Assembly (NCBI GenBank): GCA_037129555.1
Contig: JBAXUS010000007.1
Coordinates: 5,525-69,524 of the forward strand
Origin: Planctomycetota bacterium
GTDB lineage: Bacteria; Planctomycetota; SZUA-567; H5-PLA8
DNA: 64,000 nucleotides
Direction: 5' to 3'
The position numbers and the translations under genes were made by a program. Each line of letters opens with the position of its first letter. Position 1 is the stretch's first letter. The notes beneath the pieces were generated by a model. It did no database searches. It saw only the letters and a list, made by a program, of their open reading frames with translations, and was not told the origin of the DNA. Shown in pieces: positions 6,871 to 57,618 of this stretch.

Positions 6871-8424
<1,554 letters not shown>

Positions 8425-8542
8425 AAGTGTTTTGTTTTTTGAGATTTTTAATCTCGGACGTTGTAGACGTAACCAATTTGGTTGCGTCTTAGATTTCTTC
8501 CATTAGATTGTCCCGTTTCCCATTCGCAGGAACATTTACGCA

Positions 8543-10075: not shown

Positions 10076-10140
10076 CGAAAGAATCACGAAAGAATCACGA
10101 TTCCGGAGATTATAAATTGAGCGCAATCGCCATTTCCACA

Positions 10141-10497: not shown

Positions 10498-10612
10498 GGC
10501 CTCATTCGTAAATTCGAAATCCTATAATTTCATAGACAAACCATAGCAATCGCTCCAAACAAAATATCGACCGCAGCCCAATCATCCTCCAAGGCGCGGT
10601 GTACGAATTGAC

Positions 10613-12040: not shown

Positions 12041-12041
12041 C

Positions 12042-39646: not shown

Positions 39647-39677
39647 AAAAAAGAGGCGATTGAATCGCCTCTTTTTT
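39647..39677. terminator. Bidirectional Rho-independent terminator
   Basis: aaaaaa-gaggcgat-tga-atcgcctc-tttttt between convergent genes. Confidence 0.9.
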
Positions 39678-39705: not shown

Positions 39706-42033
39706 TTACTTTTGTGCTTCGGCCAGAATGCGGTCGGCGAAGAACTCGCGGGCGTTGACGCGTTGCGCAGCTTCGTGCGGGCAGGCGTAGACGCAACTCG
39801 GAGTCGACAAGTCCGTGCACAAATCGCAGGTGACGGCCTTCTTTTGAATGTTCGCCTTCTGGAAGCCCGGACGTTCCGGATCGTCCACCATTCCTTCGCC
39901 TGGGAATTGGTGCATGTTGATGTTGCCGTAGGGACACTGCTCAGCGCACAGCCCGCAACCCACACACCAATCTTCGATGATGATTTCGAGCGTTTCTTTG
40001 CGCCGAATCGAACCGACCGGACAACCGACCATGCACAGCGGATCCATGCAGCTTCGGCAGGACGTCGGCACCAGGAATTTATCGAAGCGCATGCCTTCGC
40101 GGACCAATCGGGTGACGCCATCGTGCGCGTCCGAACAGGCGCGGACGCATTCGTCGCAGCGTGTGCATTTTTCCAAATCGAGAAGCAGCAGACTCTGCGC
40201 GTGCATCAATCCTTGGCTCAAGAAGTTCGTGAGCGGAATATCCGGCGCACTCTTGGCAACCAATGACGCCTGCTTTTCGCGCTTCGCCGCTTCAGCTTCG
40301 AAACTCTTTCTCAAGCTATCGTACCAACTCAGCATGAAGTCAAAGTGGACTTTGCGGATACAGACGACTTCGACATGATCCAGTGCGGTGCAGCTTGCCG
40401 TGCGCGGGCCACCTTTGAGCAAGCCCATTTCACCGAAGTATTCGCCTCGTCCTAAGTACGTCAACACCATTTCGCCGCCCGGATGGCTCTGGCTGATCTT
40501 CACGCAACCGACGCGGATTAAGTAAAACGCGTCCGCCGGGTCGCCCTGCTTGACAATGACTTGGCCGGCATCGAAGCGCAGCAATTCAACGCGATCTTTG
40601 AGCTGCTTGATGAAGCTCTCGTCCAAGTCTTTGAAGATCGGAACGCTGCGCAAATGCTGCGCGAGCGCTCGTTCGCGGTAGTTCTTGTCCAGCTTGTCCT
40701 TGAATTTCTTGTTCTTCTGCAACGTCTGCAACACATTTCGGAGCATTTCAATAATCGTACATTCTTCGGTTGCGCGAACCGTCGCCGAGCGAGGTTGGAA
40801 GCTCATGCAAGTCATTTCGCCGAAGAGGTCTTCTTCTTGCAGCATGGCGATCGGATGATCGAGTGACAGATCCGTCGGGCCGTCGTTTCGAATCATTTTA
40901 CCGCTGGAATTTTCGCGCACTTCATCGGTCTTTGTGCGCGTCAAACCGCCGGTGAATTTCTTCAGCATGCCGAAAATACCGGAGCTGTTTTCTTTGGTCT
41001 TATCGCTCTTGATTTGGCCGATAGGCGTGTTGAGGAAGACCTCCGCCTTGCCACTGAGAATATAAAACGCGGTCGATCCGAATTCGCCTTCGCGGCAAAC
41101 GATGTCGCCCTTTTTGAATTTGCGGAGCAGGATGCTACCTTGATTGCGCTTCAGGAACTCCGGCGAAATCGCGGAGAACATCGGCATCTTAATGAGCTCT
41201 TCGACGCTGAGTACTTCGGACGCGTTAGTCGCTCCCAACTTGCCAGCTGCTTTACCGATGATGCTCTTGCTCATCACTTCGGCCTGGCTGGTGATGGCAC
41301 CGGTCGGACACGAAATCATACACTCGCCGCAATTGACGCAGGACGACTGGCCCATCGGCTTGTTCATGTCGAACGAGATGCTGGTGGCGTAACCCTTGCC
41401 CATGCGACCGATGACGTTGTTGTGTTTCACGTCGGTACAGGCGCGAACGCAGCGGTCGCAGACAATACACGCGCTGTGGTCGATGGCGATATCAACGTTG
41501 CTGAGATCGTGGCCTTTGGCGAAGAGGAACTTGCTGAGATCCGCAGGTTCACTGCCGCAGGGCGATGCCGTCTGCTTATCGTGCGCACGAGATTCAAAAC
41601 GCGGCTTATAAGGTGCAGGTGCCATGGCGTTGGCGAGCAACTCATCGACCGGCGCCTTCAGGATACCGAGCTTTTCGGCGAGCAGTTCAAGTTCGCAACT
41701 GTGCGTTTCCTTGTGGCGGTCGCACGGCACAGGATGGTCAGCCAGAAGCAATTCAACGAGCATCTTGCGCGACCGTTCGAGCCGGTCGTTGGAGGTCGTG
41801 ACCTCCATATTGCTTTCGCACGGCCGGACGCATGACGCGGCGAATACGCGGGCGCCTTTGACTTCAACAACGCAGGCGCGGCACACGCCGATTGGAGTCA
41901 GCGGGGGCTTGTGGCAGAGCACAGGAATGGGAATGCCGACGGTTTGCGCGGCATCCCAAATGCTGGTGCCTTCCGGCACCGTTACGTCTTTGCCATCGAT
42001 CTTTAGTGTGACAGTCTTCAGTGGGGCAGTCAT
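39706..42033 (-). CDS. Multi-cluster Fe-S protein: NuoG/HoxU-type N-terminus + 2 cNMP-binding domains + DmsB/NrfC-like 4-cluster domain
   Basis: 2Fe-2S pattern LCHKPPLTPIGVCRACVVEV...SC; CIVCDRCVRAC; CVNCGECMISCP. cNMP cassettes FGEMTCMSFQPRSATVRA and FGEMGLLKGGPRTASCTA. C-terminal CTRCDECVRAC, CRSCMDPLCMVGCP, CVGCGLCAEQCP, CDLC..PSCVYACP. Confidence 0.85.
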   Translation of the reverse strand: MTAPLKTVTLKIDGKDVTVPEGTSIWDAAQTVGIPIPVLCHKPPLTPIGVCRACVVEVKGARVFAASCVRPCESNMEVTTSNDRLERSRKMLVELLLADHPVPCDRHKETHSCELELLAEKLGILKAPVDELLANAMAPAPYKPRFESRAHDKQTASPCGSEPADLSKFLFAKGHDLSNVDIAIDHSACIVCDRCVRACTDVKHNNVIGRMGKGYATSISFDMNKPMGQSSCVNCGECMISCPTGAITSQAEVMSKSIIGKAAGKLGATNASEVLSVEELIKMPMFSAISPEFLKRNQGSILLRKFKKGDIVCREGEFGSTAFYILSGKAEVFLNTPIGQIKSDKTKENSSGIFGMLKKFTGGLTRTKTDEVRENSSGKMIRNDGPTDLSLDHPIAMLQEEDLFGEMTCMSFQPRSATVRATEECTIIEMLRNVLQTLQKNKKFKDKLDKNYRERALAQHLRSVPIFKDLDESFIKQLKDRVELLRFDAGQVIVKQGDPADAFYLIRVGCVKISQSHPGGEMVLTYLGRGEYFGEMGLLKGGPRTASCTALDHVEVVCIRKVHFDFMLSWYDSLRKSFEAEAAKREKQASLVAKSAPDIPLTNFLSQGLMHAQSLLLLDLEKCTRCDECVRACSDAHDGVTRLVREGMRFDKFLVPTSCRSCMDPLCMVGCPVGSIRRKETLEIIIEDWCVGCGLCAEQCPYGNINMHQFPGEGMVDDPERPGFQKANIQKKAVTCDLCTDLSTPSCVYACPHEAAQRVNAREFFADRILAEAQK

Positions 42034-42057
42034 TGAAGAGCCTCTCGTGTTCAGGTG

Positions 42058-42112
42058 GAGCCGACGGTTATCCGGCTCTGTGTTGAAGAACGAGCCGAAA
42101 AGATTTCGGCTC
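42058..42112 (-). other. Two tandem GAGCCG...CGGCTC hairpins in the nuoEF / Fe-S gene spacer
   Basis: gagccg-N9-cggctc (42058-42078) and gagccgaa-N5-ttcggctc (42092-42112). Confidence 0.7.
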
Positions 42113-42129
42113 CACGATCTTTGAACATT

Positions 42130-43830
42130 TTATTTCTTGATCTTCGCGTCAATTTCGTTCTTGAAGTACTTCAAGACAGACTGAATCGGTGCCGGAACGA
42201 CTTGACCCAAACCGCAGATCGAGGTCATGATCAGCGTGTCGGAGAGCTGTTCAATATCGTCCAAATCGGCCTTCGTACCATTGCCTTTGTGAATTTTGTA
42301 AATGATGTCGACCATCTTCTGCGAGCCGACACGGCACGGAACGCACTTTCCGCACGATTCATTGCGGTAGAAGCGCGTCGCGTTCAACGCCATCTCGACC
42401 ATGTCGGTGCCTTCCGCAATAGCGACAATCGCGCCGGAGCCGAGCATCGATCCGGCATCTTGCATGATCTTGAAGTCCATCGACAGATTCATCATCGACG
42501 GCGGAAGGAATCCGCCTGAAGGGCCTGACGGAGCGAAGGCTTTGATCTTCTTCCCACCCAACATGCCGCCACCCAATTTGTTGATGGCTTCTTCGTAAGT
42601 CGTGCCCATCGGCACTTCGAAGACACCGGGCGTATTGACGTGTCCGCTGACGCCGATCCATTTCAAACCCGCGCATCCATTGATACCCTGGGACTTAAAC
42701 CAATCCGGGCCTTTGTGCAGTATGCAGGGAACATACGAGAGCGTTTCAACGTTGTTGATGACCGTCGGCTTGCCCCACAATCCCACAAAAACGGGGAAGG
42801 GCGGCTTTACGCGCGGCTGGCCTCGGTGGCCTTCGATGGCTTCGAGCAGCGCGCTTTCTTCGCCTTGGATGTAACCGCCGGGCGAGACAAACACTTCGAG
42901 GTCAAAGGTCTTGCCCGATCCCAGCACATTCTTGCCGACAATGCCGAGTTTCTTGGCGACTTCGATTTCTTTCTCCATGGCATGAATCTGATCGTGGTAT
43001 TCGTGGCGGATGTAAATAAATCCGCGCTTCGCTCCGACGACGATTCCGGCCAACACCATGCCTTCGACCAGAAGCCACGGCACGTTCTTCATCAACTCGC
43101 GATCTTTAAAGGTGGCGACTTCACATTCGTCGGCGTTACACACAACATACTTTTCATCGCCCGGCGCTTTATTGACGGCTTCCCATTTTGAACCCGTCGG
43201 GAATCCTGCGCCACCCATTCCGCGCAATCCGCCCGTTTTCAATTTCCCGATCACATCCCCAATCGGACCGAGACTGGCAACGCCCTTCACAGCCGATTCA
43301 ATCGCCGCTTGCTCTTCGCTTTGCGGTGCGGGATGTAGAATGTTATTGATCAGCGTCTTGATCGCGCCGTAGCGTTCACCTTCGTTGGCGTACGGATCGG
43401 ACTTAAACGGACCTTTGAGTCCCGGGAAATGTTGCTCGGGGACTTCCTTGCCCGCAAGCGCCTGCTTGACTAACTCAAGCAACGCCGCGTGCCCTTGACC
43501 GGCGTACGGATGATCGTTGATCAGAATGCCGGGAGCGCGATCACATTGTCCCAGACACGAGACGTGACCGACGTGAACGTCGGAGCGTCCTTTGCAGAGC
43601 GCTTCGATGTCGGTGCGCAATTTGTCGCACCCGTTCAGGGCGCAGGGAAAATCGCCGCAGACGCGAACATCGACTTTGGGCGGCGGCACCATTCTAAAAT
43701 GCGGATAGAAGGTGGCGACACCATGCAAATCGTAAACAGGAATATTGAGCCGCTGCGACAGAGCTGTGAGCTCTTTTTCAGGGACATAGCCGTGTTTGTG
43801 CTGGATCTCGTGCAGTTCTTTTATAACCAA
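42130..43830 (-). CDS. NuoE-NuoF fusion (NADH dehydrogenase flavoprotein module)
   Basis: NuoE motifs: VCGDFPC...C and SCLGQCDRAP. NuoF motifs: GGAGFPTGSKW, NADECEVATFKDR, ESCGKCVPCRVG, SICGLGQ. TTG 43830 (GAAAGG 6 nt upstream, N-terminus MVIKELHEIQ) is preferred over ATG 43968. Confidence 0.88.
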   Translation of the reverse strand: MVIKELHEIQHKHGYVPEKELTALSQRLNIPVYDLHGVATFYPHFRMVPPPKVDVRVCGDFPCALNGCDKLRTDIEALCKGRSDVHVGHVSCLGQCDRAPGILINDHPYAGQGHAALLELVKQALAGKEVPEQHFPGLKGPFKSDPYANEGERYGAIKTLINNILHPAPQSEEQAAIESAVKGVASLGPIGDVIGKLKTGGLRGMGGAGFPTGSKWEAVNKAPGDEKYVVCNADECEVATFKDRELMKNVPWLLVEGMVLAGIVVGAKRGFIYIRHEYHDQIHAMEKEIEVAKKLGIVGKNVLGSGKTFDLEVFVSPGGYIQGEESALLEAIEGHRGQPRVKPPFPVFVGLWGKPTVINNVETLSYVPCILHKGPDWFKSQGINGCAGLKWIGVSGHVNTPGVFEVPMGTTYEEAINKLGGGMLGGKKIKAFAPSGPSGGFLPPSMMNLSMDFKIMQDAGSMLGSGAIVAIAEGTDMVEMALNATRFYRNESCGKCVPCRVGSQKMVDIIYKIHKGNGTKADLDDIEQLSDTLIMTSICGLGQVVPAPIQSVLKYFKNEIDAKIKK

Positions 43831-44060
43831 GCTCAGCCTTTCCGCTCGGAAGTGTGCCGATGAATTAATCCAGGTTGTTTGCCGCCTGTGCGCCAGCACA
43901 TCGTCAACGCCGCTGAATTCGTTTGGCCACTCCGAACTTCGTTTTGTCGCGCAGCTACCAGAGAACAAATTGTATGGGTAATCGTTTCAAAATCATAGTC
44001 CGCTCCCGCAGCTTGTCAAGGCAAGCCGCGAATTTTTTTCAACGGCAAACAGCGAAAGGC

Positions 44061-44211
44061 TTTTAACATCGAATAACGCGAATAAACGCGAATGAATTGG
44101 GAACAAAGGAGGAGGAGAACCGGTATCGCACTTTCCGCTCCAAACTTTTCCCATCAACCTCTAAAATTATTCGCGAAGATTCGCGTTTATTCGCGTTATT
44201 CGATGTTAAAA
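44061..44211. repeat. Perfect 33-bp terminal inverted repeats around an 85-bp core (MITE-like or giant hairpin)
   Basis: ttttaacatcgaataacgcgaataaacgcgaat (44061-44093) is the exact reverse complement of 44179-44211. Confidence 0.9.
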
Positions 44212-44232: not shown

Positions 44233-47200
44233 TCACTTCGAAGCCCGCAGAAACGCGATCAAATCCGCGAGGTCCTGCGCCGGGATCAGCGTCTCAAATC
44301 CGTCCGGCATCACCGACACAGTCCCCGGCTCGATCTTCGCAATATCCGCGCGCCGAATGTGCTTCTCCGTCTTCGGATCAATCGCCAGAACAACCTCATC
44401 CGCACCGTCTTTTTTCAGAATCCCATTAAAGCGCTCGCCGCTCGTCGTTTTGACGGCGAACGGCTCGTAACTCCGCACAAAACTCGCGCTGGGATACACG
44501 ATGGCTTCGAGCAAATCGCGCTCCGTCCGCGTCTTCCCGATGCTGGTCAAATCCGGTCCCAACGTCCCGCCGAGATACCCGGTCGCGTGACACGTCGAAC
44601 ATGCATTCTTCGCCGAATGAAACACCACATGCCCGCGCTGCACATCACCCGGCGGAAGCTTTTTCAGGAGCTCATCCAAATGCGCCGCTTGAGCCGCCGC
44701 GTTCGGACTAAGTTCAGCGAGCCACACCGCCGCAGCGTCTTGAACGGCCTTCGAGTATTTCGCAAACACAGGCCGCACAATCTCCGGACGAAGGCTCTTC
44801 GAATAGTTCGATGATTTTAATGCGTCCAAGAGGAGCAGGCCGATTTCGTCCGTGGTGTTTCGTTCGAAGATTGGAAGCAACTGGCGAATTTCCATCGGCC
44901 CGACAAAATCGTTGATGGCCTTCGCGAGTCTCTTCTTGTGCGGGGCTACCAAGTCGATTTTCACCAGCCCCGCGCATGCAGCGTTCCGCTCTGCTGACGG
45001 ATTTGTGGGTTCGAGCGCATGAATGAAGAATTCGAATAGATCGGGAAGGATGTCGCATTGAAAGCCGCTTGAGGTCGCGTGAATGGCGAGCATGGCGTTC
45101 AAGCGCGTGAGTGGCGGATAGGCGTCCGATCGTGTCACATCGTAAAGAGTCCCTGCCAGTTCAATGGGTTCTACTTTTCCTAATTGGTTAAAATTTTTCG
45201 GTCGTTTGTAGGCGCGCACGGCATCGATCCCGTCGTCCAGCAGCGCGCCTTTCAGCGATGGGATTACTTTTGTCAGACAATTAATCCACGCGTCGGGCGT
45301 CTCTTTCACGTCGGCTCCGGCCATTGCGCGCAGAGCGATTCGTTGCGCGTCCGGATTGGACGGAGCGGAGACCGTTCGGGCAAGTAATTCCTGAACTTTC
45401 GGTGTCTTCGCAAACGTCGAAAGCTGCCGAACAAGCTGTCCTTGATCCACGCCTTTTTCGTTGGGAGCCGCCAGCTTTTTCGTGAGATAATCGACCACGG
45501 CGTCGCCCCATTCAGGATGGTGGCCGACGACCCAATTGGCGGTGCGGTTCAATTCGGGTTCGGGTCGTTCGAGAAATGGAATGATCTCTTCGGGCTTGAG
45601 ATCCGAACCCGTCAATTGGTCGAGCACCACCATGGCCGCGCGGACGCAATGAACATCAGCAGAGGTCAGTTGTTTGCGGGCGTTTTCACCATGGTTGCTG
45701 GATATTTCCGCGAAGATAAAGGCGTGTTCCAACGCACGAATTCGCGGATCGATTGGAGTGCCGGAATCGGTGCATTGATTGTCGTATTTCCAAAGAAATT
45801 GAGGAAGCACGAGATAATCCAATTGCACGTTCGCTCGTCCCAACGCTTCAAAGGCCTGGCGCGCTGCAGTTACATCATCGTCGAAGGGGCCTGGTCTGTG
45901 TTGATTCAGAAGACGTTGCGCGAGCATTTGCAACTTCTCTCGATTTGCTGCAGCTTGCAGAGAAGTGATATGTGCGGCCACGCTCGCAACTGTTGGGTCC
46001 TTGTCCAGCATCCATTCTGCATGCAGCTTGAATGTCGGAATGACCTCATACAACCGAGCCAACGCCCACAACGCATTTCGTCGCGCTTCACTATTTGTTG
46101 ATTTATCGGCCACATCCATCAGCGCCCACGCGGTTGGATCGCTAGCGCGGTCTCCAAGTGTTTCAATCGCGCGCCTGCGCACAAATACGCGTTCATCGCC
46201 CAAGTATTTCGCACATTCCTCGTCCTTCAGCTTCTTCCATTCGATCTTTAATCCGCGAGGGTCGTCCAGAGCGACCGCGTCCTTTTTCTTCACGCGATAA
46301 ATTGCTCCCAACACATCCGGCTTGGCGAGTTGCGAGGTGGGGCAACAGATTTTGTACCACCCGCCGGTATCTGCCACTAGCACGCTCCCGTCGGCGTCTT
46401 CGAGCACATCGGTGGGATGAAAATCGGGGCTGTCGGAGGAGAGGAAATCGGAGTCCCGAGTTGTGTACGTCTCGCGGTCTTGATCAAGAATTGTTCGGAT
46501 GACTTTGTGGAGATTGAAGCTGCACGTGAACAGGTTGTCGTGGTACCCGTCGCCGAAGATATTGGAGTCGTAACACATCATCCCGCACGGAGCCGCCGCG
46601 CCCCAGTTCGTCAGCACCGGCATCACGTCACCCGTCATCACGTGGCCGTTCAAAACGTCATGAACTTTCCCATACACGCCGCCATAAATCGCATGGATCA
46701 ACCCGTCGCGTTTTCCGCCCGCGGGATGCTGAAAAAACGTGCACGACAAAAAGCGTTCGCCGACCGAATTGAACGCCAGCCCCACCGGATTATCCATCCC
46801 GCCCGTCAGCACCGGTTCGACATTCGTTCCGTCCGGCCGAGCTCGGAAAATATGCGCAGCCTTCGACGCAAATGGCTTCCCGTTCGGCAGCGTAATCGTC
46901 TGCTCAGCAAACGCGCCCTTGCACCAATAAATCCACCCGTCGCGCCCTAGATACGGCCCATGCAAATCGTTCGCGCATCCCGTCAGCGTCTTGCCATCGT
47001 GCCAAATCTCGCGCTTGTCCGCGACGCCATCGCCATCGGTGTCCGTCAATTTCCAAATCTGCGGCGGAGCCGAAACCAGCAGCGAGCGACCGTACCATAA
47101 GCACCCTTCCGGAAACATCATCTTGTCCGCAAACACGACGCTCTTTTCAAACACGCCCTTCGCATTCGCCGCATCCAAACGCACGACTCGATGCGGCTTC

Positions 47201-47430
47201 GTTTCAAGCTGCTTCTGAGCCTTGTCGCTCATCCCCGCCGAATCGGTAACATACAATCGCCCCTGCTCGTCGAACGACATGTTAATCGGCCTATTGACCA
47301 ACGGTGGCCCGGCCACGAGTTCGACTTCAAACCCGTCCGGAACCGTCAGCGTCTGAGTCCCGAATTTGAATTGCGCGGCAGACGCATGTGAGATCGCAAG
47401 GAGTGCGCAGAGAATGAGAAGGCGATTCAT
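44233..47430 (-). CDS. PVC-type heme-binding CxxCH protein (beta-propeller dehydrogenase-like domain + HEAT repeats + cytochrome c)
   Basis: Signal peptide, N-terminal propeller (LYVTDS..., DGWIYW), a long HEAT-like middle, and C-terminal ACSTCHATGYLGGTLGPDLTSIG. Confidence 0.82.
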   Translation of the reverse strand: MNRLLILCALLAISHASAAQFKFGTQTLTVPDGFEVELVAGPPLVNRPINMSFDEQGRLYVTDSAGMSDKAQKQLETKPHRVVRLDAANAKGVFEKSVVFADKMMFPEGCLWYGRSLLVSAPPQIWKLTDTDGDGVADKREIWHDGKTLTGCANDLHGPYLGRDGWIYWCKGAFAEQTITLPNGKPFASKAAHIFRARPDGTNVEPVLTGGMDNPVGLAFNSVGERFLSCTFFQHPAGGKRDGLIHAIYGGVYGKVHDVLNGHVMTGDVMPVLTNWGAAAPCGMMCYDSNIFGDGYHDNLFTCSFNLHKVIRTILDQDRETYTTRDSDFLSSDSPDFHPTDVLEDADGSVLVADTGGWYKICCPTSQLAKPDVLGAIYRVKKKDAVALDDPRGLKIEWKKLKDEECAKYLGDERVFVRRRAIETLGDRASDPTAWALMDVADKSTNSEARRNALWALARLYEVIPTFKLHAEWMLDKDPTVASVAAHITSLQAAANREKLQMLAQRLLNQHRPGPFDDDVTAARQAFEALGRANVQLDYLVLPQFLWKYDNQCTDSGTPIDPRIRALEHAFIFAEISSNHGENARKQLTSADVHCVRAAMVVLDQLTGSDLKPEEIIPFLERPEPELNRTANWVVGHHPEWGDAVVDYLTKKLAAPNEKGVDQGQLVRQLSTFAKTPKVQELLARTVSAPSNPDAQRIALRAMAGADVKETPDAWINCLTKVIPSLKGALLDDGIDAVRAYKRPKNFNQLGKVEPIELAGTLYDVTRSDAYPPLTRLNAMLAIHATSSGFQCDILPDLFEFFIHALEPTNPSAERNAACAGLVKIDLVAPHKKRLAKAINDFVGPMEIRQLLPIFERNTTDEIGLLLLDALKSSNYSKSLRPEIVRPVFAKYSKAVQDAAAVWLAELSPNAAAQAAHLDELLKKLPPGDVQRGHVVFHSAKNACSTCHATGYLGGTLGPDLTSIGKTRTERDLLEAIVYPSASFVRSYEPFAVKTTSGERFNGILKKDGADEVVLAIDPKTEKHIRRADIAKIEPGTVSVMPDGFETLIPAQDLADLIAFLRASK

Positions 47431-49791: not shown

Positions 49792-50307
49792 CGATGTTTT
49801 CCCAAGATTCCATTTCGAAATTCGAACGCACCAATATAGGGTCTGCGCTCAAAAATGAAAGCGAAAACGGACCTTATTACGGAGTTCGCGTCTAGCTCTT
49901 ATCTTAGCCACGGAGTGGCAACAAGTTCAAGTAGCCGTGGTCGCAGCCCGTACCCGGGCAAGGCCACGGATCCTTTCACGCGAGCAAATTGAGCCGCGTC
50001 AGCGGCGACACCGAATCGTCAAACGAACGCAGTTTTAGCGCCAAGTACCCAATTCCGGATCCCAAACATGCACATGTGCACGGTGCCGCCCGTTCCCCAA
50101 CCACTACCTGTAGTGGTCAAAGCCCATTTTAACATTCAAAAATGTGAAACCAACACCCATTGCACAAGAATCACATTGTGCGTCAAGCGTCGCACCCAAT
50201 CCGGCCATCAAACCAACAATCGCCTCATTCAGCTTTACATACAACGTTCCAAAACCAAAAAAGGCAACACCTTTTTAAGTAAATTTCAGCCACTCATAAC
50301 GCATCAA

Positions 50308-50373
50308 CCCGAAACCCGAAACCAGAAACCAGAAACCAGAAACCAGAAACCAGAAACTAGAAACTAGAAACCC
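50308..50373. repeat. Heptanucleotide microsatellite (CCNGAAA x about 9.4)
   Basis: cccgaaa cccgaaa ccagaaa x5 ctagaaa x2 ccc, ending 6 nt from the stop codon at 50380-50382. Confidence 0.95.
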
Positions 50374-50379
50374 AATCCG

Positions 50380-51144
50380 TTAAAAATCCGTATTCGCATC
50401 CTTCAATTCCAGTTCCTTGATCCACGCGTTCCGGTACCGAACATCGTGCCCTTCACACTGCAACTTCAACCCGCCGGGCGTATCGGTGATGCCCTTGCCG
50501 CCATCATTCCCGCCATCAATCCCCGAATTCTTTCCGCCCCATACCTGATTGATCTTCACGTTCGTGTGGACTTTGACACCATTAAAGTACATCGAGACCA
50601 AAGCCTTCTCGTCCAGCTTTCCGTCTTTAAAGCGCGCGGCGCGGAAGACGATGTCGTACGAATTCCACTTACCCAACCCCGCAAATTCCTTGTACGGCGA
50701 CTCCGTCTCATTGATCACCGCACCCATCCCATGTTTCGTCTTGTCGCCTTCACAAATCTGAATCTCGTACCGGTTCTGCAAATACACGCCACTGTTTCCG
50801 CGCGGCTTCATGACCAGAAATTCGACATGCAACCGGAAGTCGCGGTACGCCTTCTTCGTGACGATATCCGCCGAACCATACTTCCCACCCGCCGCAACCG
50901 GGTCGTCGCTCATCACGACCGTGCCCTTATCCACCGGGTCCTCGACAATTTTCCATTTAATGGGCATCGCCGACTTAAACCCAGGCCCTTCCCAATAAAT
51001 CCATTTGTCATCCAACATCTGCCGCGACCCATCAATAATCACCTCCGCGCCAGCAATCGGAACCGCCCCCAACCCCATTTCACCCGCCGAAATCAAGCTG
51101 CCAACCATCGCAACGACAGCCAAACACGTCAATTTGAAATACAT
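50380..51144 (-). CDS. DUF1080 (3-keto-disaccharide hydrolase family) secreted protein
   Basis: Signal peptide from MYFKLTCLAVVAMVGSLISA (ATG 51144 preferred over TTG 51168). YRDFRLHVEF...GNSGVYLQNRYEIQI. Confidence 0.8.
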   Translation of the reverse strand: MYFKLTCLAVVAMVGSLISAGEMGLGAVPIAGAEVIIDGSRQMLDDKWIYWEGPGFKSAMPIKWKIVEDPVDKGTVVMSDDPVAAGGKYGSADIVTKKAYRDFRLHVEFLVMKPRGNSGVYLQNRYEIQICEGDKTKHGMGAVINETESPYKEFAGLGKWNSYDIVFRAARFKDGKLDEKALVSMYFNGVKVHTNVKINQVWGGKNSGIDGGNDGGKGITDTPGGLKLQCEGHDVRYRNAWIKELELKDANTDF

Positions 51145-51203
51145 AATGAACCTTTCAATAAATCCCAATCGATTTTGAAAACCTATTTTTATTTGCTTTC
51201 TGT

Positions 51204-51234
51204 CCTCTGCCGTTCCTCTGTGTCCTCTGTGGTT
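51204..51234. repeat. 31-nt CCTCTG-triplet element, copy A
   Basis: cctctgccgttcctctgtgtcctctgtggtt, 29/31 identical to 57561-57591. Confidence 0.9.
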
Positions 51235-51261
51235 TAAAGAAGTTTCGCCGTTTAATCAACT

Positions 51262-52344
51262 CTAACAAATATGCGCCCCCACCGCTTCTACATACACCGC
51301 ATACAACGACTGACTCGCCGTCATATACAACCGATTTCGTTTCGGCCCACCAAAGCACACATTGCTGCAAATCTCCGGCAGCATAATCAACCCAATCCGC
51401 TCGCCTTCCGGGCTGAACACATGCACGCCATCATATCCTTCACCGACCCAACCGCCACCGACCCAGATATTGCCATCCGTATCCGCGCGGATGCCATCCG
51501 CCATTCCGGCCACTTCTTTCCCATTCACTGTCATCTTCATCGAACAGTATTCTTTTCCAGCAGCCAATTTGTCCGTGCCGTTCAACTCATAAACACGAAT
51601 ATTCTTCGGCGCTTTCTCATAATGCGACGCCCCCGTGTCACAGACATACAACCGCTTGTAATCCGGCGAAAAGCAAATCCCATTCGGACGGAACATATCA
51701 TCGATAACTTTCGTGATCGCACCCGTCTTGCCATCAAGTCGGTAGACCGCCTCCTTCAATTCCAATTGAGCTCGATGCCCTTCATAATCCCCAGAAATAC
51801 CATATCCCGGATCCGAGAACCAAATGCCACCGTCCGGATGGACTACAATATCATTAGGAGCATTAAACGGCTTGCCTTCAAATTTATCAGCCAAGACACG
51901 TCGCGCCCCACTGTGCTCATACCGCACCACACAACGCGTATCATGTTCGCAGGATAATTGCCGGCCTTCATAATCGAATGTATTACCATTACTATAATGC
52001 GAAATGCTGCGTAGCTTACTAACATGCCCGTCTTCATCTAACCGGCGCAATTGAACATTATTCGGTATATCACTCCACATCAAATACTGCCCCCCTGCAT
52101 TCCAAGCAGGACCTTCAGCCCATCGCATGCCTGTATAAATCCGCTCAATCGCAGCGTTGCCCACCTTATATTTAGCGAACCGTTTATCCAACACGACGAT
52201 ATCCGGATCAGGGTACCGAACCATTGGAGCATTGGGACCGTAGTCGCGAGCAAATACAGCACTGGTCGCTAACGCGGACAAGCCTGCAATGAAAGAACGT
52301 CGATCAAACGGGCTCCCGCCGGAGTTCTGGTTGTGCATCCTCAT
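51262..52344 (-). CDS. SMP-30/gluconolactonase/LRE-family protein (Tat signal)
   Basis: RRSFIAGLSALATSAVFA. AEGPAW, PNDIVVHPDG, PNGICFSPD, ADGIRADTDGNIW. Confidence 0.82.
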   Translation of the reverse strand: MRMHNQNSGGSPFDRRSFIAGLSALATSAVFARDYGPNAPMVRYPDPDIVVLDKRFAKYKVGNAAIERIYTGMRWAEGPAWNAGGQYLMWSDIPNNVQLRRLDEDGHVSKLRSISHYSNGNTFDYEGRQLSCEHDTRCVVRYEHSGARRVLADKFEGKPFNAPNDIVVHPDGGIWFSDPGYGISGDYEGHRAQLELKEAVYRLDGKTGAITKVIDDMFRPNGICFSPDYKRLYVCDTGASHYEKAPKNIRVYELNGTDKLAAGKEYCSMKMTVNGKEVAGMADGIRADTDGNIWVGGGWVGEGYDGVHVFSPEGERIGLIMLPEICSNVCFGGPKRNRLYMTASQSLYAVYVEAVGAHIC

Positions 52345-52421
52345 TTTCCTTTAATGTGTTGGGTCAGGTATCCTCACCTGTACACCACGAAGCACCGACA
52401 TGAACAAAGTTTTCGTAAATC

Positions 52422-52504
52422 AAAAGAGTCGCGCGCGCAAGCAAGCGGCCAAGCTGGAGACATCCTATCAGCACGAACCGCTTGCTTGCGCGCGCGGCTC
52501 TTTT
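52422..52504. repeat. 27-bp-arm inverted repeat with a 29-nt loop
   Basis: aaaagagtcgcgcgcgcaagcaagcgg ... ccgcttgcttgcgcgcgcggctctttt, with one T/G mismatch. Confidence 0.9.
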
Positions 52505-52729
52505 AGACATCCCAAATCACGCTTGGTCACTTTGACAACATCGACACGCCGAAATGATCGAAATAATCACCATTGAATCGAAAAATCAGCTTCGTCGCAT
52601 CCAATTACTCCTTAATTCTAAATAACTTATGATTTTCACTTGAAAATGACGCGCATGTGCACACAATTTGCGTTTCGTGCTCAATACGAGTAGCCAATTC
52701 GATTATCGAGAAGACGAGGCAGGAGCGCC

Positions 52730-53707
52730 ATGTCGCAAGAATCAGTTCTGGTTGACGTGAAAAACGTCGTCAAAACCTACGGTCCGTTACGCGCGGTTGA
52801 CGATCTGACCTTCCAAATCAAAGCCGGCGAAATTGTCGGTCTGCTCGGACCCAACGGTGCCGGCAAATCCACGACCATGAAGATGCTGACCTGCTACTTG
52901 GAACCGACGCAAGGCAGTATCAAAGTCGCGGGAATCGATGTAAACGAAAATGCGGTCGGCGTTCGCCAACACATCGGCTACTTGCCTGAACACGCCCCCC
53001 TTTATACAGACATGCGAGTCAATGAATACCTCGATTTCGCCGGTCGAATTCGCGGACTCAGCAGCGCCAAACGCAAAGACCGCATCGATTGGGCCGTCAA
53101 AGCCTGCGGCCTCGAAGCCAAATACAAAGCCACCATTGGAACCCTCTCGCGTGGATACCGTCAGCGAACCGGCCTGGCTCAAGCCGTCTTGCACGATCCG
53201 GATTTGCTGATCCTCGACGAACCCACCAGCGGCCTCGACCCGATCCAATTGATCGAAATCCGCAAACTCATTCTCGAAATTGGTAAGAAGAAAACCGTCC
53301 TCTTTTCGACCCACATCATGCAGGAAGTCGAAGCCGTTTGTAACCGCGCGATCATTATCAATCGCGGCAAACTGGTCGCCGACGGAGCGCCGTCCGAACT
53401 CAAAGCACGCGCAGGCACCAATCAGAAAGTTCTGGCCCGAATTCGCGGTGCGCAAGCCGACGTTGAAAAGCAATTGAAGAACCTGCCGGACACGTCCTCC
53501 GTCGATGTTCATCCGATTCCCAATGGCAGTTGGCTGGAATGCACAATTAAGCTGAGTGAATCAGCAGCCGTGAATCCGATGAACACAGGCGAACAGGTCT
53601 CGAAACTCTGTAAAGATAATTCATGGGATGTACAGGAAATCAAGATCGAAGCGTTGACGTTGGAAGACACGTTCTTGAAAATGACAGGGCACGAGAAGTT
53701 AAAGTAA
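52730..53707 (+). CDS. ABC transporter ATP-binding protein (GldA-like)
   Basis: GPNGAGKSTT, LSRGYRQR, LILDEPTSGLD. AGGAG precedes the ATG. Confidence 0.88.
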   Translation: MSQESVLVDVKNVVKTYGPLRAVDDLTFQIKAGEIVGLLGPNGAGKSTTMKMLTCYLEPTQGSIKVAGIDVNENAVGVRQHIGYLPEHAPLYTDMRVNEYLDFAGRIRGLSSAKRKDRIDWAVKACGLEAKYKATIGTLSRGYRQRTGLAQAVLHDPDLLILDEPTSGLDPIQLIEIRKLILEIGKKKTVLFSTHIMQEVEAVCNRAIIINRGKLVADGAPSELKARAGTNQKVLARIRGAQADVEKQLKNLPDTSSVDVHPIPNGSWLECTIKLSESAAVNPMNTGEQVSKLCKDNSWDVQEIKIEALTLEDTFLKMTGHEKLK

Positions 53708-53795
53708 TTCCGTACCGCAGGCGTTGCGCCTGCATGTGTCAATACGAGCCGGCGTCAGGTCGGCGGTCCATTTAAACAGCAAGGATCAACGTAAT

Positions 53796-54518
53796 ATGGG
53801 AGCTACATTCAGCGTATTTAGGCGCGAATTCGCCGCGTATTTTAATACGCCCATCGGGTACGTATTCATGGCGTTCTTTCTGCTGGTCACGAAAGCGCTG
53901 TTTGTATCAACAATCTTTACCAATGGCTCCGCAGACATGCGCGGTTATTTCGGCCTCATGCCGATCTTCTTTCTGTTCTTCATCCCAGCCATCTCCATGC
54001 GCTTGTGGTCTGAAGAACGCAAACTCGGCACACTCGAATGGCTGCTCACGCTGCCTTTGAATGCGTGGCAAGCCGTCCTAGGAAAGTATCTCGCCGGACT
54101 GGCCTTCATCGCCGTCTTTTTGATGCTGACGCTCGACGTGCCTATCTTCATGTACATCTATGGTAATCCAGACATCGGACCCATTATCGGCGGTTATTTA
54201 GGTACCATGGTATTAGGTATGGTCTATTTAGCAATCGGAGCATTTGCGTCCAGCCTGACATCCGACCAAATCGTCGCATTCGTTGTCGCAGTAGCAATCA
54301 GTTTCATATTCTTTCTGATGGGCTACGGACCCGTGTTGGAATGGATGAAAGATATTTTCGGAGCCACCATTACAGCAGGTGTCCAGCAGTTTGGTATTGA
54401 GTATCATTTCGAAAGTGTTTGTCGCGGTGTTGTGGACACCCGCGATGCCCTGTACGCCCTGTCGATGTCCGGCGCGTTCCTGTTCATGAACTACTTGGTC
54501 GTCGATCACAGGAGATAA
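53796..54518 (+). CDS. ABC-2 type permease (GldF-like)
   Basis: FRREFAAYFNTPIGYVF N-terminus and 6 TM segments. ATG 53796 follows AAGGA. Confidence 0.8.
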   Translation: MGATFSVFRREFAAYFNTPIGYVFMAFFLLVTKALFVSTIFTNGSADMRGYFGLMPIFFLFFIPAISMRLWSEERKLGTLEWLLTLPLNAWQAVLGKYLAGLAFIAVFLMLTLDVPIFMYIYGNPDIGPIIGGYLGTMVLGMVYLAIGAFASSLTSDQIVAFVVAVAISFIFFLMGYGPVLEWMKDIFGATITAGVQQFGIEYHFESVCRGVVDTRDALYALSMSGAFLFMNYLVVDHRR

Positions 54519-54526
54519 TATACACC

Positions 54527-56326
54527 ATGATAATTGTCATTACTGTCGCCATTGTATTACTGGCATTGCTGGTGATTCCCTTGATTTACTCAGGCGATTT
54601 CGTCACGTTTTTTAAACGCTTCGGCCTGACCGTATTGATCGGCTTCGCAGGCATCTTGATGGCGGTGCTGATCAATTCGATCTCGCAAAAAGCATCGTTG
54701 CGCAGTGATTTGACCACGGATCAAAAATACAGCGTCAACCCCGGGTTGCTGAACGTCTCCAAGAAGCTCACCGACCAAGTCCAGATTGTCTATTATGTCT
54801 CGTCAAAGATTCAAGAATTTGTTCAAATCAAACTCGATTTGACGGATAAATTGAATGAAATCAAGAACGCCACCAACGGCATGATTGATTTCAAAATTGA
54901 AGATGTCGATCAAAAAGACGAGAAGCTGATGGCTGAATTAGGTACCAAAGGTTTCCTGCGACAAATTCAATCCAACAGTAATGACGAATTGAGCTTTTCA
55001 ATTCTGATCAGCGGGATGAAGATTACCTACAAGGACCTGGAAAGCGTCTACATTCCGCAGATTTACGCATCCAACGATCTGGAATACGCGCTAGGCGAAA
55101 AAATGATCGAACTTTACACCAAAGAAAAGCCGTCCGAAAAGCCCACGATTGCGCTGAATCTACCACCGTCAGGCCAAGGCTTTAATATGCCAGGAAAGCC
55201 GCAGCAGGGCAGCGGCTTCGAATGGATCGCCAATGGTGTCAGCGACAAGAAATTTGATGTCAAGCAGATTGACTTCAGCCAAAACCAACCCTTGCCAGAC
55301 AAGACCTCCTTACTCCTGATGGTTCGCCCCAAGCTGATGGACGAGCGTCAGAAGTATGAAGTTGCCAAGTATTTAGCCGAAGGCGGAAAAGTGCTCATGT
55401 TCGCCAGCCCGATTCGCGCCCTCGGCGACACGGTGGAACAGACTCCATACGGCCTCGAAAACTATTTCAAAGACATCGGGATCACGTTGGGATCAAGTGT
55501 TCTTGCCGACAAGTCCCACTTGAGCGTCTCCGTCAATCGCCGCACCTTTGAATTCCCTCCATACTTTATCCGCATCAAGCCGGAGAATATCGACCAGTCG
55601 ACATCATTGACTCGCTTGATGCCAGGCTTGTGTATGCCGACGCCGACTGAAATCTCATTCGATAAAGGTCTCTTGGATAAACAAAAGTTAGCACTAACAG
55701 TCCTTGCCAAGACGACTGAAAACAGCTGGGAGCTAAAAACAATCGGCACGACATTGGATAAGAACTCAATGCAGGAACCAGCCAAGAGTGGCACACAGAA
55801 AGTAGTATTCGCAATGATCAAAGGCCAATTCCCTTTCCCATACGAAGGCAAACCAGTGCCCGAATGGCCGGCGGCTGAAAAAGAGAAAGATAAGAAGGAC
55901 GATAAAGAGAAGGACAAGCCTAAATTGCCAGTGATTGCATCTGTGTCATCATCTAAAAAAGAAGGGACGCTAGTGCTGTGTTCGTCACCCGAAGCATTCT
56001 ACGGTCCTTACCTAGAAGAGCCAAATCTCCGCAACTTGATTCAAACAGGTAACGTCAGCATGCTGTTGAATGTGACTGAAAGCATGAGCTATGGCGATGA
56101 TTTGGTCAAGCTGCGCACCAAGAATTATGAAACACGCATCATTTCAAAGTTGTCAGGTGCAGAGAAAGAAAATCTCCGCCAGATGTGGAAATTGGCGTTG
56201 ATTGCTGGCGTCCCAGCACTGGTGTTGTTGTTCGCCGTGTACCGCTTCATGTGGCGTCGTTTGGATCAGTTGAATTACGAACGTAAATTTGCAGGCAGCA
56301 TTGGACCCTCGAGTTTCACTCCATGA
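54527..56326 (+). CDS. GldG-family ABC-transport auxiliary protein
   Basis: N- and C-terminal TM anchors around a large extracytoplasmic domain. ATG 54527 follows AGGAGA. Its position after the ABC-2 permease fits the family. Confidence 0.72.
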   Translation: MIIVITVAIVLLALLVIPLIYSGDFVTFFKRFGLTVLIGFAGILMAVLINSISQKASLRSDLTTDQKYSVNPGLLNVSKKLTDQVQIVYYVSSKIQEFVQIKLDLTDKLNEIKNATNGMIDFKIEDVDQKDEKLMAELGTKGFLRQIQSNSNDELSFSILISGMKITYKDLESVYIPQIYASNDLEYALGEKMIELYTKEKPSEKPTIALNLPPSGQGFNMPGKPQQGSGFEWIANGVSDKKFDVKQIDFSQNQPLPDKTSLLLMVRPKLMDERQKYEVAKYLAEGGKVLMFASPIRALGDTVEQTPYGLENYFKDIGITLGSSVLADKSHLSVSVNRRTFEFPPYFIRIKPENIDQSTSLTRLMPGLCMPTPTEISFDKGLLDKQKLALTVLAKTTENSWELKTIGTTLDKNSMQEPAKSGTQKVVFAMIKGQFPFPYEGKPVPEWPAAEKEKDKKDDKEKDKPKLPVIASVSSSKKEGTLVLCSSPEAFYGPYLEEPNLRNLIQTGNVSMLLNVTESMSYGDDLVKLRTKNYETRIISKLSGAEKENLRQMWKLALIAGVPALVLLFAVYRFMWRRLDQLNYERKFAGSIGPSSFTP

Positions 56327-57429
56327 ACAAAATAACCCTATTCCTCGTCTCCGTAATTGTTGTCTTAGCACTCTTTCTACTCAATTATTTTGTGGTAGAT
56401 AAGCATCCGCCAGCCACGTCAACAGCTGCAAGTCACGGGATGATTTTTAAAGAGCTGAACGCCGGAGCGATGACCACTATCTCGCTCAAGAAAGGCAGCG
56501 TCACGATCGAGCTTGTCCGCAAAGACAAGGAATGGCTCATGCCATTGCAGAAGAATCGTGTCGCCAAGATTGATCGCATCAATAAGCTGCTCTCCGATTT
56601 AGAAAGCACCTATTGCAGCGGTCAACGCACTGCCAAGACGCTTGAGCCCTTCGAACTGGCTCCATCAAACCGTGTCGAATTAGTCATGGAAGGTAATGGT
56701 AAGAAGACCTCTCTCTATATCGGCAAGAATATTCCCGAGACAGGCAGCTTCGTGCAGCGCGATTCGACCAGTTCAGTATTGGAAGTAGACAAGTTCCTTG
56801 CAACCAGCGCAGGTGTTCGAGAAGATAAAGGTGTCACTGTTCTCGATCCAGTCTTCTTTTACGACCTCAAGATTTTCTCGGATAGTGCCGACGACGCAAT
56901 TGATGTGGTGATCAAGAAGGGCAACGAAGTCTTCCGCGTTCAAAAAGTATTGCCCGGAAAAGGTCCTCTGGTCGCCAATCAGAAATTGGATAAAGATGAC
57001 AAGCCTGAATGGTGGATCACCGAACCCGAAGGCGGCCCAGCCGACGAATCAAAAGTACGTAACATATGCTCAACGATGCTGAATTTGACCGGCAAAGGTT
57101 ATGCAGACGAACTAGCAGAAAAGGATCGCGGATTCGACAAATCCCCAGCCAAGATAGTAATCCGCTTGAAAGACGGCGCAGAACGTTCGATGACGTTTGG
57201 TAAGATTGATAACGATGACGTCTTAGTTAGCGCAATCGGAAAGTCCGATGTCTTCAAAGTCAACAAATACGTCTTCGACACATGTACAAAGACAGACGAA
57301 ATCAAGAAGAAGGAAGAGAAGAAAGAAGAGTCAGCCGCCCCAGCACCATCGGTCACGCCGCCAGCTCCTGTCACTCCGCCCAAGATAGATGGACCGAAAG
57401 TGCCAGTCATTCCGGCACCCAAGAAATAG
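56323..57429 (+). CDS. DUF4340-like protein with a Pro-rich tail
   Basis: N-terminal TM segment. ATGA overlap with the GldG-like gene. This is the usual fourth gene of such operons. Confidence 0.6.
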   Translation: MNKITLFLVSVIVVLALFLLNYFVVDKHPPATSTAASHGMIFKELNAGAMTTISLKKGSVTIELVRKDKEWLMPLQKNRVAKIDRINKLLSDLESTYCSGQRTAKTLEPFELAPSNRVELVMEGNGKKTSLYIGKNIPETGSFVQRDSTSSVLEVDKFLATSAGVREDKGVTVLDPVFFYDLKIFSDSADDAIDVVIKKGNEVFRVQKVLPGKGPLVANQKLDKDDKPEWWITEPEGGPADESKVRNICSTMLNLTGKGYADELAEKDRGFDKSPAKIVIRLKDGAERSMTFGKIDNDDVLVSAIGKSDVFKVNKYVFDTCTKTDEIKKKEEKKEESAAPAPSVTPPAPVTPPKIDGPKVPVIPAPKK

Positions 57430-57465
57430 CAGTTAAGAATTAAACGTTACAGTTACTGAATACGC

Positions 57466-57499
57466 AGAAAGCCCGGCACAATCGCCGGGCTTTCTTTTT
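57466..57499 (+). terminator. Rho-independent terminator
   Basis: agaaagcccggc-acaatc-gccgggctttct followed by tttt. Confidence 0.92.
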
Positions 57500-57560
57500 A
57501 ATTAATCCAAATCGAATATGAGGAAATATAACCGCTGTTTTTGTTACCACTTCCGCCTTT

Positions 57561-57591
57561 CCTCTGCTGTTCCTCTGTGCCCTCTGTGGTT
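57561..57591. repeat. 31-nt CCTCTG-triplet element, copy B
   Basis: cctctgctgttcctctgtgccctctgtggtt. Confidence 0.9.
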
Positions 57592-57618
57592 AAAATATGT
57601 TTTAAGTTTAAATTGGGT

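Follow-up and report, generated by a model that had tools for sequence, protein, structure and literature searches.

A NuoE-NuoF fusion and an iron-sulfur protein with tandem cyclic-nucleotide-binding domains: a candidate NADH input module related to Ptd-type cassettes

The two genes described here are best filed with the known NADH-dehydrogenase modules of the HoxEFU, NuoEFG, and HydBC type, and are related to the uncharacterized Ptd-type cassette. The ptdABCDEFG cluster encodes an oxidoreductase that binds NAD(P) (PtdC), a tetrahaem cytochrome (PtdD), a 4Fe-4S protein that binds cyclic nucleoside monophosphates (cNMPs; PtdE), a transmembrane protein (PtdF), and a decahaem cytochrome (PtdG), and its function is described as "completely unknown" (bioRxiv 10.1101/2023.11.21.568154). 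The pair is located on the minus strand of a 64,000-nucleotide stretch from a Planctomycetota bacterium (contig JBAXUS010000007.1, positions 5,525 to 69,524; hereafter the window), and is made up of a NuoE-NuoF fusion (gene 1) and a 775-aa iron-sulfur (Fe-S) protein with a tandem cNMP-binding insertion (gene 2). A preliminary description, made from the DNA alone, took the pair for a soluble NAD(P)H-linked electron wire or redox sensor that has no catalytic partner and is gated by cyclic AMP (cAMP) or cyclic GMP (cGMP). Its observations held with minor corrections and its interpretation is partly supported, while the gating itself is a prediction from the sequences. We consider it slightly favored that the pair serves in the cytoplasm as the NADH input module, probably under cNMP gating, for a NuoEF-fed electron-export chain of the ptd type, and that the clade containing the window is a derived branch of this family. 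To our knowledge, cNMP signaling gates kinases, transcription factors, and ion channels, and we know of no electron-transfer chain that is gated in this way. If the proposal is true, a nucleotide-gated NADH dehydrogenase would represent a new regulatory principle in bioenergetics.

Gene 1 (42130..43830, longest open reading frame [ORF] to 43968; both genes and all of their domains are on the minus strand) is identified as a NuoE-NuoF fusion by Pfam matches and motifs, as initially reported, although the start probably has to be moved, which gives a protein of 566 aa. It contains a NuoE-type [2Fe-2S] domain, a flavin mononucleotide (FMN)/NADH site, an SLBB domain, and an N3 [4Fe-4S] cluster. 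The NuoE-like domain has a thioredoxin fold (43462..43830; VCGDFPC ... SCLGQC; PF01257, 91 bits against a cut-off of 24.8) and includes the VATFYP helical part, and all four cysteines of its C-x4-C ... C-x3-C ligand set are kept in 49 homologues. The NuoF portion is recognized by three domains that score over their cut-offs, namely the FMN/NADH-binding domain (42727..43236; Complex1_51K, PF01512, 147 bits), the SLBB domain (42 bits), and the N3 domain (42145..42396; ESCGKCVPCR and SICGLGQ; NADH_4Fe-4S, PF10589, 99 bits), as well as by a glycine-rich GGAGFPTG loop and the four N3 cysteines, and these NuoF motifs are conserved in the same 49 homologues. A distinction from the HoxEFU, NuoEFG, and HydBC modules is found in the flavin site, where the canonical NADE(S/G)EPG and YICGEE loops read NADECEVAT and YIQGEE (ECEVA versus ESEPG). 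The altered loop, which the preliminary description had pointed out, is specific to the Planctomycete clade of the window: the four loci examined from this clade have NADE[CA]EV[AG]T and Y[IV]QGEE, while all other homologues, including those from Acidobacteriota, have the canonical NADESEPGT and YICGEE.

Gene 2 (39706..42033) encodes a cytoplasmic protein that begins in the same way as NuoG and HoxU, in agreement with both the initial assignment and Pfam. The first domain is a HoxU/NuoG-type [2Fe-2S] domain (41788..42018; Fer2_4, PF13510, 71 bits) with the ligands C40-x10-C51-x2-C54-x13-C68, so that the first spacing is x10 and not x11 as originally given; all four cysteines are invariant among 50 sequences. 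This is followed downstream by a 2x[4Fe-4S] ferredoxin-like domain (41290..41490; CIVCDRCVRAC and CVNCGECMISCP) that matches Fer4_7, Fer4_9, and Fer4_Nqo3, with a Fer4 dicluster at residues 182-248, and whose 8 cysteines are also invariant. Consequently, gene 2 possesses the Fer2_4 and 2x[4Fe-4S] domains of the N-module found in NuoG, HoxU, and [FeFe]-hydrogenases, with all 12 cysteines invariant. Between these domains is a degenerate version of the His-ligated cluster motif (41686..41736; H100-P-V-P-C104-D-R-H107-x5-C113-E-L-E), in which the middle Cys of the canonical H-x3-C-x2-C-x5-C is replaced by His, a further difference from the known modules. The replacement, correctly observed in the window, is a family-wide property, as position 107 is Gln in 175, Glu in 18, and His in 11 of 204 loci. 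While the profile searches confirmed the other domains that had been named, NADH-G_4Fe-4S_3 (PF10588) remains below its cut-off (19.7 bits against 27). The invariance of H100, C104, and C113 across the whole gene 2 family suggests that something is still bound at this site, which may be a three-ligand cluster, a metal, or a cofactor that takes a ligand from the partner subunit. A low-complexity insert of ~50 aa (41509..41661; alignment columns ~150-205) is present only in the window's Planctomycete clade and is modeled by AlphaFold2 (AF2) with a predicted local distance difference test score (pLDDT) of ~53-73, lower than that of the flanking Fer2_4 domain.

In contrast to NuoG, gene 2 has two cyclic-nucleotide-binding (CNB) domains and a domain with four cluster motifs in place of the molybdopterin-like domain. 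The C-terminal domain (39739..40191; Fer4 at ~650-760) resembles DmsB, NrfC, and HybA, as proposed previously, in that its 16 cysteines form four 4-Cys motifs in the characteristic order; among 50 sequences, 15 of these show no variation and C739 is kept in at least 90%. The matches to NCBIfam models (DmsB, HydN, FDH3-beta) are partial and the family scores are not reached (Fer4_11, 23.5 against 26.2; DmsB, 43 against 214). Furthermore, unlike DmsB, NrfC, and HybA, gene 2 is cytoplasmic with no Tat signal, and neither a molybdoenzyme nor an NrfD-type partner was found in any locus examined. Alignments of 15 and 50 homologues that span several phyla show the [2Fe-2S] ligands and 24 [4Fe-4S] cysteines of gene 2 to be either invariant or conserved to at least 90%. 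For the pair as a whole, the estimate of up to about 10 cofactors stands, with nine firm sites and one doubtful site (H100/C104/C113); the firm cofactors are listed as FMN, two [2Fe-2S], and seven (6 + 1) [4Fe-4S].

The CNB region of gene 2 matches cNMP_binding (PF00027) in three stretches with 137 bits against a cut-off of 27.5. As the preliminary description had noted, there are two domains with canonical phosphate-binding cassettes (PBCs), each retaining the G-E ... R-[ST]-A pattern. Domain A (40714..41184; PBC FGEMTCMSFQPRSATVRA) is interrupted in its beta4-beta5 loop by an insert that is 57 aa (residues 337-393) and not ~70 aa long; this insert was mapped against PKG and is kept in all family members aligned. 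Outside of the insert, domain A is modeled with a pLDDT of 80-92. Domain B (40264..40656; PBC FGEMGLLKGGPRTASCTA) has its best Pfam stretch at 486-568. Among 50 sequences, domain A shows no variation at G405, E406, R415, and A417 and at least 90% conservation at S416; domain B shows no variation at G534, E535, R544, and A546, and its T545 is invariant or at least 90% conserved. The best matches of this region are the nucleotide-binding PKA-R (PKA-RI), the PKG tandem CNB, and MloK1. Gene 2 shares with PKA-R/PKG, MloK1, and the CNG/HCN channels two consecutive CNB domains with canonical PBCs, and potentially the concept of a nucleotide-driven rearrangement that gates a conduit. It differs from these proteins in the insert of domain A and in the placement of the CNB domains, which are set between Fe-S modules rather than on a kinase or an ion pore, and ligand binding by gene 2 is predicted.

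Many domains with the CNB fold bind other ligands or none, as is the case for FNR, CooA, and CprK. It is therefore conceivable that the CNB-type domains of gene 2 do not bind nucleotides and function as a structural spacer or dimerization scaffold, or respond to another ligand. Degenerate PBCs in some members of the wider superfamily point in this direction and detract from cNMP control, and a class III cyclase hidden Markov model gave no match in a six-frame translation of the window, consistent with the earlier statement that no cyclase is present there. However, across the phyla that contain this orthologous family, the Gly-Glu and Arg-[ST]-Ala residues of both PBCs either do not vary or are kept in at least 90% of the sequences, the best matches all bind nucleotides, and a CHASE2 class III cyclase is found within 10 kb in 13/44 homologous loci. 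A role without nucleotide binding is consequently considered unlikely, and the invariance of the PBC residues across phyla makes control by cNMPs more plausible.

Insight into the function of the pair comes from its relatives. Gene 2 matches at least 3682 proteins at E <= 1e-10, with >100 full-length clusters at 52-88% identity, and these relatives are annotated simply as, for example, "cyclic nucleotide-binding domain-containing protein". They occur in at least 589 species-representative genomes, mostly metagenome-assembled genomes (MAGs) of Acidobacteriota, and also in Planctomycetota, Methylomirabilota, Verrucomicrobiota, Binatota, and others. The family, which runs to thousands of protein clusters, is concentrated in uncultured Acidobacteriota and Planctomycetota from soil, peat, and sediment, whose anaerobic physiology is poorly understood. 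Conserved neighbors were counted by tblastn over 84 loci (the 80 best loci, the window, and three further loci). NuoEF is directly upstream of the gene 2 homologue in 73/73 loci, and an unannotated membrane protein of ~300 aa (c3) is directly downstream in 72/79. Additionally, an N-anchored decahaem cytochrome with 10 CxxCH motifs (c2) is encoded downstream in 66/71 loci and a tetrahaem cytochrome with 4 CxxCH motifs (c1) upstream and divergently in 64/70, while a ~9-haem LVIVD-repeat protein (29/44) and a CarboxypepD_reg protein of the outer-membrane type (22/44) are found nearby. The linkage is also evident when starting from c3, as a gene 2 homologue is directly upstream in 75/76 loci. The sole exception is a 6.6-kb contig from an Actinobacteria MAG (L122), in which NuoEF is followed by c3 and the decahaem cytochrome with no gene 2 homologue; this arrangement may reflect a deletion or a misassembly, or be a genuine variant.

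Based on these neighbors, the family as a whole resembles a cytoplasmic entry point into a transmembrane electron conduit more than a free-standing soluble device, and its conserved linkage with a membrane protein that may carry two haems and with deca- and tetrahaem cytochromes suggests an unrecognized NADH-fed extracellular or periplasmic electron route. The c3 protein has five predicted helical transmembrane segments and a ~145-aa cytoplasmic helical insert. Two His pairs, H81/H95 and H285/H299, are invariant, each with i, i+14 spacing and located on two helices, as would be expected if two b-haems were stacked, making c3 a dihaem-b candidate. In this respect the relatives of the window pair resemble the Tmc/Hmc complexes and the NOX-type proteins with ferric-reductase domains, since their membrane partner contains two His pairs suited to two stacked haems, and they are proposed to carry out electron transfer between the cytoplasm and periplasmic cytochromes as do Tmc/Hmc-type complexes.

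The best PDB and NCBIfam matches of the pair are HoxU, the N-termini of group A6 [FeFe]-hydrogenases, HydB, and HoxF, and the pair shares with the HoxEFU, NuoEFG, and HydBC modules the NuoE-type [2Fe-2S] domain, the NuoF FMN site, N3, and, in gene 2, the N-terminal [2Fe-2S] and 2x[4Fe-4S] domains. These similarities raise the question of whether the pair simply acts as a diaphorase of the usual kind (HoxEFU, HydBC, or FdsBG type) for a hydrogenase or formate dehydrogenase (FDH) encoded elsewhere. The scores are, however, far under the family cut-offs, as all equivalog cut-offs are missed by both gene 1 (TIGR01959, 453 against 559; NF010120, 363 against 389; nuoE_fam, 79 against 142) and gene 2 (HoxU, 148 against 333; FeFe_hydrog_A6, 187 against 765; NuoG, 98 against 470). 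A survey of gene neighborhoods, which could have revealed an ordinary diaphorase, instead found no adjoining hydrogenase, FDH, or Nuo partner in about 160 homologous loci, and the genes conserved next to the pair encode cytochromes and a membrane protein. Similarly, and in line with the preliminary description, no hydrogenase, FDH, or Nuo membrane subunit is present among the 40 of 48 window ORFs that were scanned against Pfam.

A second reading suggested by these matches is that the pair is a Bfu-type flavin-based electron-bifurcating enzyme, in which NADH and a second donor or acceptor are coupled at the NuoF-like flavin. Among solved structures, the HydB/BfuB chains from bifurcating hydrogenases are closest to gene 1 and score highest, and its c3-linked homologues retain the HydB-type H-x7-C-P-x-G-x-C motif. 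In Thermotoga maritima HydB, a Zn2+ "hinge" is ligated by three Cys and one His (PMC9499530). The corresponding tail of the NuoEF homologues, AH-x6-7-C-P-x-G-x-C, aligns residue for residue with the HydB stretch just after the N3 helix, and by analogy we infer that it would supply the HydB-type Zn ligands. The C-termini of NuoEF from L001, L008-L083, and L084-L242 were compared with the window (42130-42160), and the tail was found in 196/196 c3-linked loci versus 0/8 of the lone-pair loci detected in the scan, in which c3 is not linked. In the window, gene 1 ends in ...DAKIKK without the tail, and the loss of the tail co-varies with the altered flavin loop and, in gene 2, with His in place of Gln or Glu at residue 107. 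Bifurcation is difficult to reconcile with the domain content of the pair: gene 1 ends right after the N3 domain and therefore lacks the C-terminal 2x[4Fe-4S] domain of BfuB, the NuoE-type domain is fused to its N-terminus, and neither a separate BfuC nor a third substrate module of the ferredoxin type is present. The survey paper on Bfu enzymes makes no mention of cNMP domains. Gene context and missing domains thus rule against both assignments, and we regard the diaphorase as very improbable and bifurcation as scarcely credible.

The relationship to the Ptd-type cassette is apparent when the C-terminal portion of gene 2 is considered on its own. A search with residues 262-775 recovered 1071 representatives (50% identity clusters) at E <= 1e-30, which occur as stand-alone proteins of ~500-560 aa, as HoxU-fused proteins like gene 2, and as longer variants. 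This portion is therefore homologous to stand-alone cNMP-FeS proteins of the PtdE type, with which gene 2 also has its four-cluster domain in common. The stand-alone protein P0147 (L164) is part of a cassette that encodes a ferredoxin, an FNR-like NAD_binding_1 protein, the cNMP-FeS protein, a c3 homologue, and a multihaem cytochrome; the identity of the membrane neighbor of the stand-alone form as a c3 homologue is clear (hhalign probability 100, E = 3e-58). The same Ptd-like cassette logic is seen around both the stand-alone and the full-length homologues. These findings fit an interchangeable front end, in which an FNR-like protein and a small ferredoxin would take the place of NuoEF and the N-module. 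By analogy with the gene descriptions of ptd, which likewise place a cNMP-binding Fe-S protein beside a transmembrane protein, tetra- and decahaem cytochromes, and an NAD(P)H oxidoreductase, they also fit the view that the window family is a version of a ptd-type cluster with NuoEF and the fused HoxU-like module replacing the FNR-like front end. The differences are that the NAD(P)H module of the window family is NuoEF with the fused HoxU-like N-module rather than an FNR-like protein, that its c3 has no ferric-reductase Pfam match, and that the window itself holds none of the membrane and cytochrome genes. The earlier statement that there is no characterized example agrees with full-text literature searches, in which no characterized member turned up and the ptd preprint alone describes a cytochrome cluster that includes a 4Fe-4S protein with cNMP binding. 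A further member of the superfamily, P0208 (1058 aa), has the Fe-S/CNB architecture fused to a C-terminal NUDIX hydrolase domain, which hints at another nucleotide-linked variant.

The domain order of the pair suggests a mechanism for the proposed input module. First, the products of the operon would form a cytoplasmic two-subunit flavo-iron-sulfur complex, in which gene 1 oxidizes NADH at FMN and hands single electrons through the N3 [4Fe-4S] cluster. Next, across the putative subunit contact, the electrons would enter the HoxU/NuoG-like N-module of gene 2 with its [2Fe-2S] and two [4Fe-4S] clusters, cross the tandem PKA-R-like CNB pair, and arrive at the C-terminal domain with four 4-Cys motifs, the presumed output end. 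Binding of cAMP or cGMP in both pockets may then reposition the input and output Fe-S modules relative to one another, switching the flow on or off. In most lineages the acceptor would be c3, the candidate dihaem-b protein, feeding the membrane-anchored decahaem and the tetrahaem cytochromes and sometimes outer-membrane components, so that the family chain would constitute an NADH-fed export route without obvious involvement of quinones. In the window clade, the electrons may go to a soluble acceptor or to a membrane protein whose gene is located elsewhere. Tight switching is expected of a route that spends NADH without energy conservation, and this expectation fits the two cNMP pockets between the modules and the cyclase neighbors. 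A bolder version of this proposal, in which a cyclic nucleotide opens or closes an intramolecular wire to control quinone-independent NADH-to-decahaem export in Acidobacteriota, Methylomirabilota, and others, with the window clade having re-used the module for a different acceptor, is offered as a tentative possibility that falls well short of even chances.

The direction of flow merits consideration, as NuoEF/HoxFU-type modules are reversible in known enzymes and multihaem conduits can run both ways. The c3-linked system could in principle take up periplasmic or extracellular electrons to reduce NAD+, with the cNMP domains gating uptake. The reduction of NAD+ (-320 mV) would, however, be uphill from typical cytochrome potentials, and no energy-coupling subunit is found in the cassette. 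Inward flow is accordingly judged to be quite unlikely, and export from NADH is preferred.

The window belongs to a Planctomycete clade in which the pair stands alone. This clade includes at least nine loci (the window, L003, L005, L006, L007, L165, L243, L244, and the P0007 contig), in which the relatives are 64-88% identical to the window and have unrelated neighbors each time. The claim that the pair has no catalytic partner and forms a soluble wire is thus borne out for the linkage of genes in this clade, while the rest of the family is tied to c3 and cytochromes. A partial contig with 91% identity (L004) likewise has no c3 in its 2.4-kb downstream flank. Other Planctomycetota do have the linkage, as L085 encodes the full-length protein beside c3, and L143 and L166-L168 encode stand-alone forms beside c3. 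In a neighbor-joining tree rooted with the stand-alone forms and calculated without support values, the lone-pair loci group together as a single monophyletic branch nested among c3-linked lineages, with the full-length c3-linked forms as its sister; based on this placement, loss of the c3 linkage is the simpler reading, with the lone-pair clade as a probable derived branch that keeps just the cytoplasmic pair. Two clade members, L006 and L007, contain at 8279-12193 on the minus strand an uninterrupted 1304-aa antisense ORF across the NuoEF and gene 2 homologues, and similar ORFs are found in other loci; these are probably a composition effect.

Several findings weigh against the assignment of the pair to an export chain. 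No homologues of c1, c2, or c3 are present in the 64-kb window, none was found within 5-10 kb of the pair in the seven other clade loci with sequence flanking the pair at both ends, and the called genes beside P0007 include no c1, c2, or c3; for this clade, an export-chain role is thus an extrapolation. The changes specific to the clade (the flavin loop, the missing HydB-type Cys tail, and His at position 107) are compatible with a shift in function. The c3 protein itself has no Pfam or NCBIfam match, and a Foldseek search of the PDB with its AF2 model (pLDDT 72) returned nothing significant (best E = 0.17); haem binding is predicted from His spacing. A relationship of c3 to ferric reductases or cytochrome b was considered and has no support at the fold level in the same search; c3 is not detectably related to either. 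Finally, the AF2 model of gene 2, built from a 50-sequence alignment, has a mean pLDDT of 65 and a predicted TM-score of 0.44, with the Fe-S domains below 50, and therefore offers no inter-cluster distances or gating geometry.

Consistent with these reservations, the clade pair may instead be a stand-alone soluble NAD(P)H-linked wire that is gated by cAMP or cGMP and passes electrons to a diffusible acceptor (ferredoxin, flavodoxin, a small molecule, or O2) with no membrane partner. The recurrence of the lone pair in at least nine loci with unrelated neighbors speaks for this, as do the operon's own promoter and terminator, and the flavin loop, the loss of the Cys tail, and the ~50-aa insert together suggest a functional shift. 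A Planctomycete-seeded scan for c3 also returned none from clade assemblies among the matches listed; absence of c3 is not established by those matches, and the MAGs are incomplete. On the other hand, none of the genes linked to the pair encodes a candidate soluble acceptor, and the output domain is about as conserved as in the c3-linked relatives, with 15 of 16 cysteines and many surface motifs invariant in both. A soluble wire is consequently regarded as doubtful, if a serious contender for this clade, and a membrane partner for the input module continues to be preferred. The redox sensor reading finds no support, as there is no output domain that would be consistent with such a role. Whichever acceptor is used, the lone pair, with two genes and soluble-looking products, is suited to in vitro work on nucleotide binding and gating.

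The layout of the operon agrees with the preliminary description in its coordinates and in its bidirectional terminator. The two minus-strand ORFs (39706-42033 for gene 2 and 42130-43968 for the longest form of gene 1) are separated by a spacer of 96 nt (42034..42129). A sigma-70-like promoter, TTGACA-16 nt-TATGAT, with 11 of 12 consensus matches, is located at 43992..44019 (minus strand), 24 nt upstream of the start of the longest gene 1 ORF and ~160 nt upstream of 43830. The true start of gene 1 is probably a TTG at 43830, giving 566 aa, because an SD-like (Shine-Dalgarno-like) GAAAGG is found upstream of this codon, the N-termini of most homologues align at residues 46-47 of the long ORF, and the orthologue in L165 (88% identical) is called at 566 aa. 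Downstream of the pair, a bidirectional intrinsic terminator, aaaaaaGAGGCGATtgaATCGCCTCtttttt (39647..39677, both strands), forms a perfect hairpin with A- and T-runs on its flanks and is common to the operon and a convergent Metallophos gene. This terminator was found by direct reading of the letters, having been passed over by an automated scan, and its folding (-19 kcal/mol, z = -4.9) is not equaled by any of 200 shuffles. With its own promoter and its own terminator, the pair is a self-contained bicistronic unit. Both genes are under strong purifying selection, with ratios of nonsynonymous to synonymous substitution (dN/dS) relative to the L165 orthologues of 0.062 (gene 1) and 0.072 (gene 2).

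Directly upstream of the pair is a gene for a 1065-aa DUF7133 and HEAT protein with a C-terminal CxxCH cytochrome c motif (44233-47430, minus strand). This gene was considered as a conserved partner and rejected, as the copy in L165 is 6 kb away on the opposite strand and other clade loci have none. Between its stop codon and the promoter of the pair is a perfect 33-nt inverted repeat (44061-44093 / 44179-44211) with arms 85 nt apart, which occurs once in the window and was not found in the 244 loci searched; it may act as a long hairpin of the terminator or attenuator type or as an operator, or be the remnant of a small mobile element. The remaining window genes (PSCyt/PSD, HXXSHH, sulfatases, IMPDH, GuaA, GltX, PtsI, and RecG) are those of an ordinary Planctomycete chromosome. 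Window positions 50001-58000 have a G+C content of 0.47-0.51, compared with 0.54-0.57 elsewhere, and the GC skew at 50001-52000 is strongly negative (-0.345), suggesting that this region may be foreign or atypical DNA.

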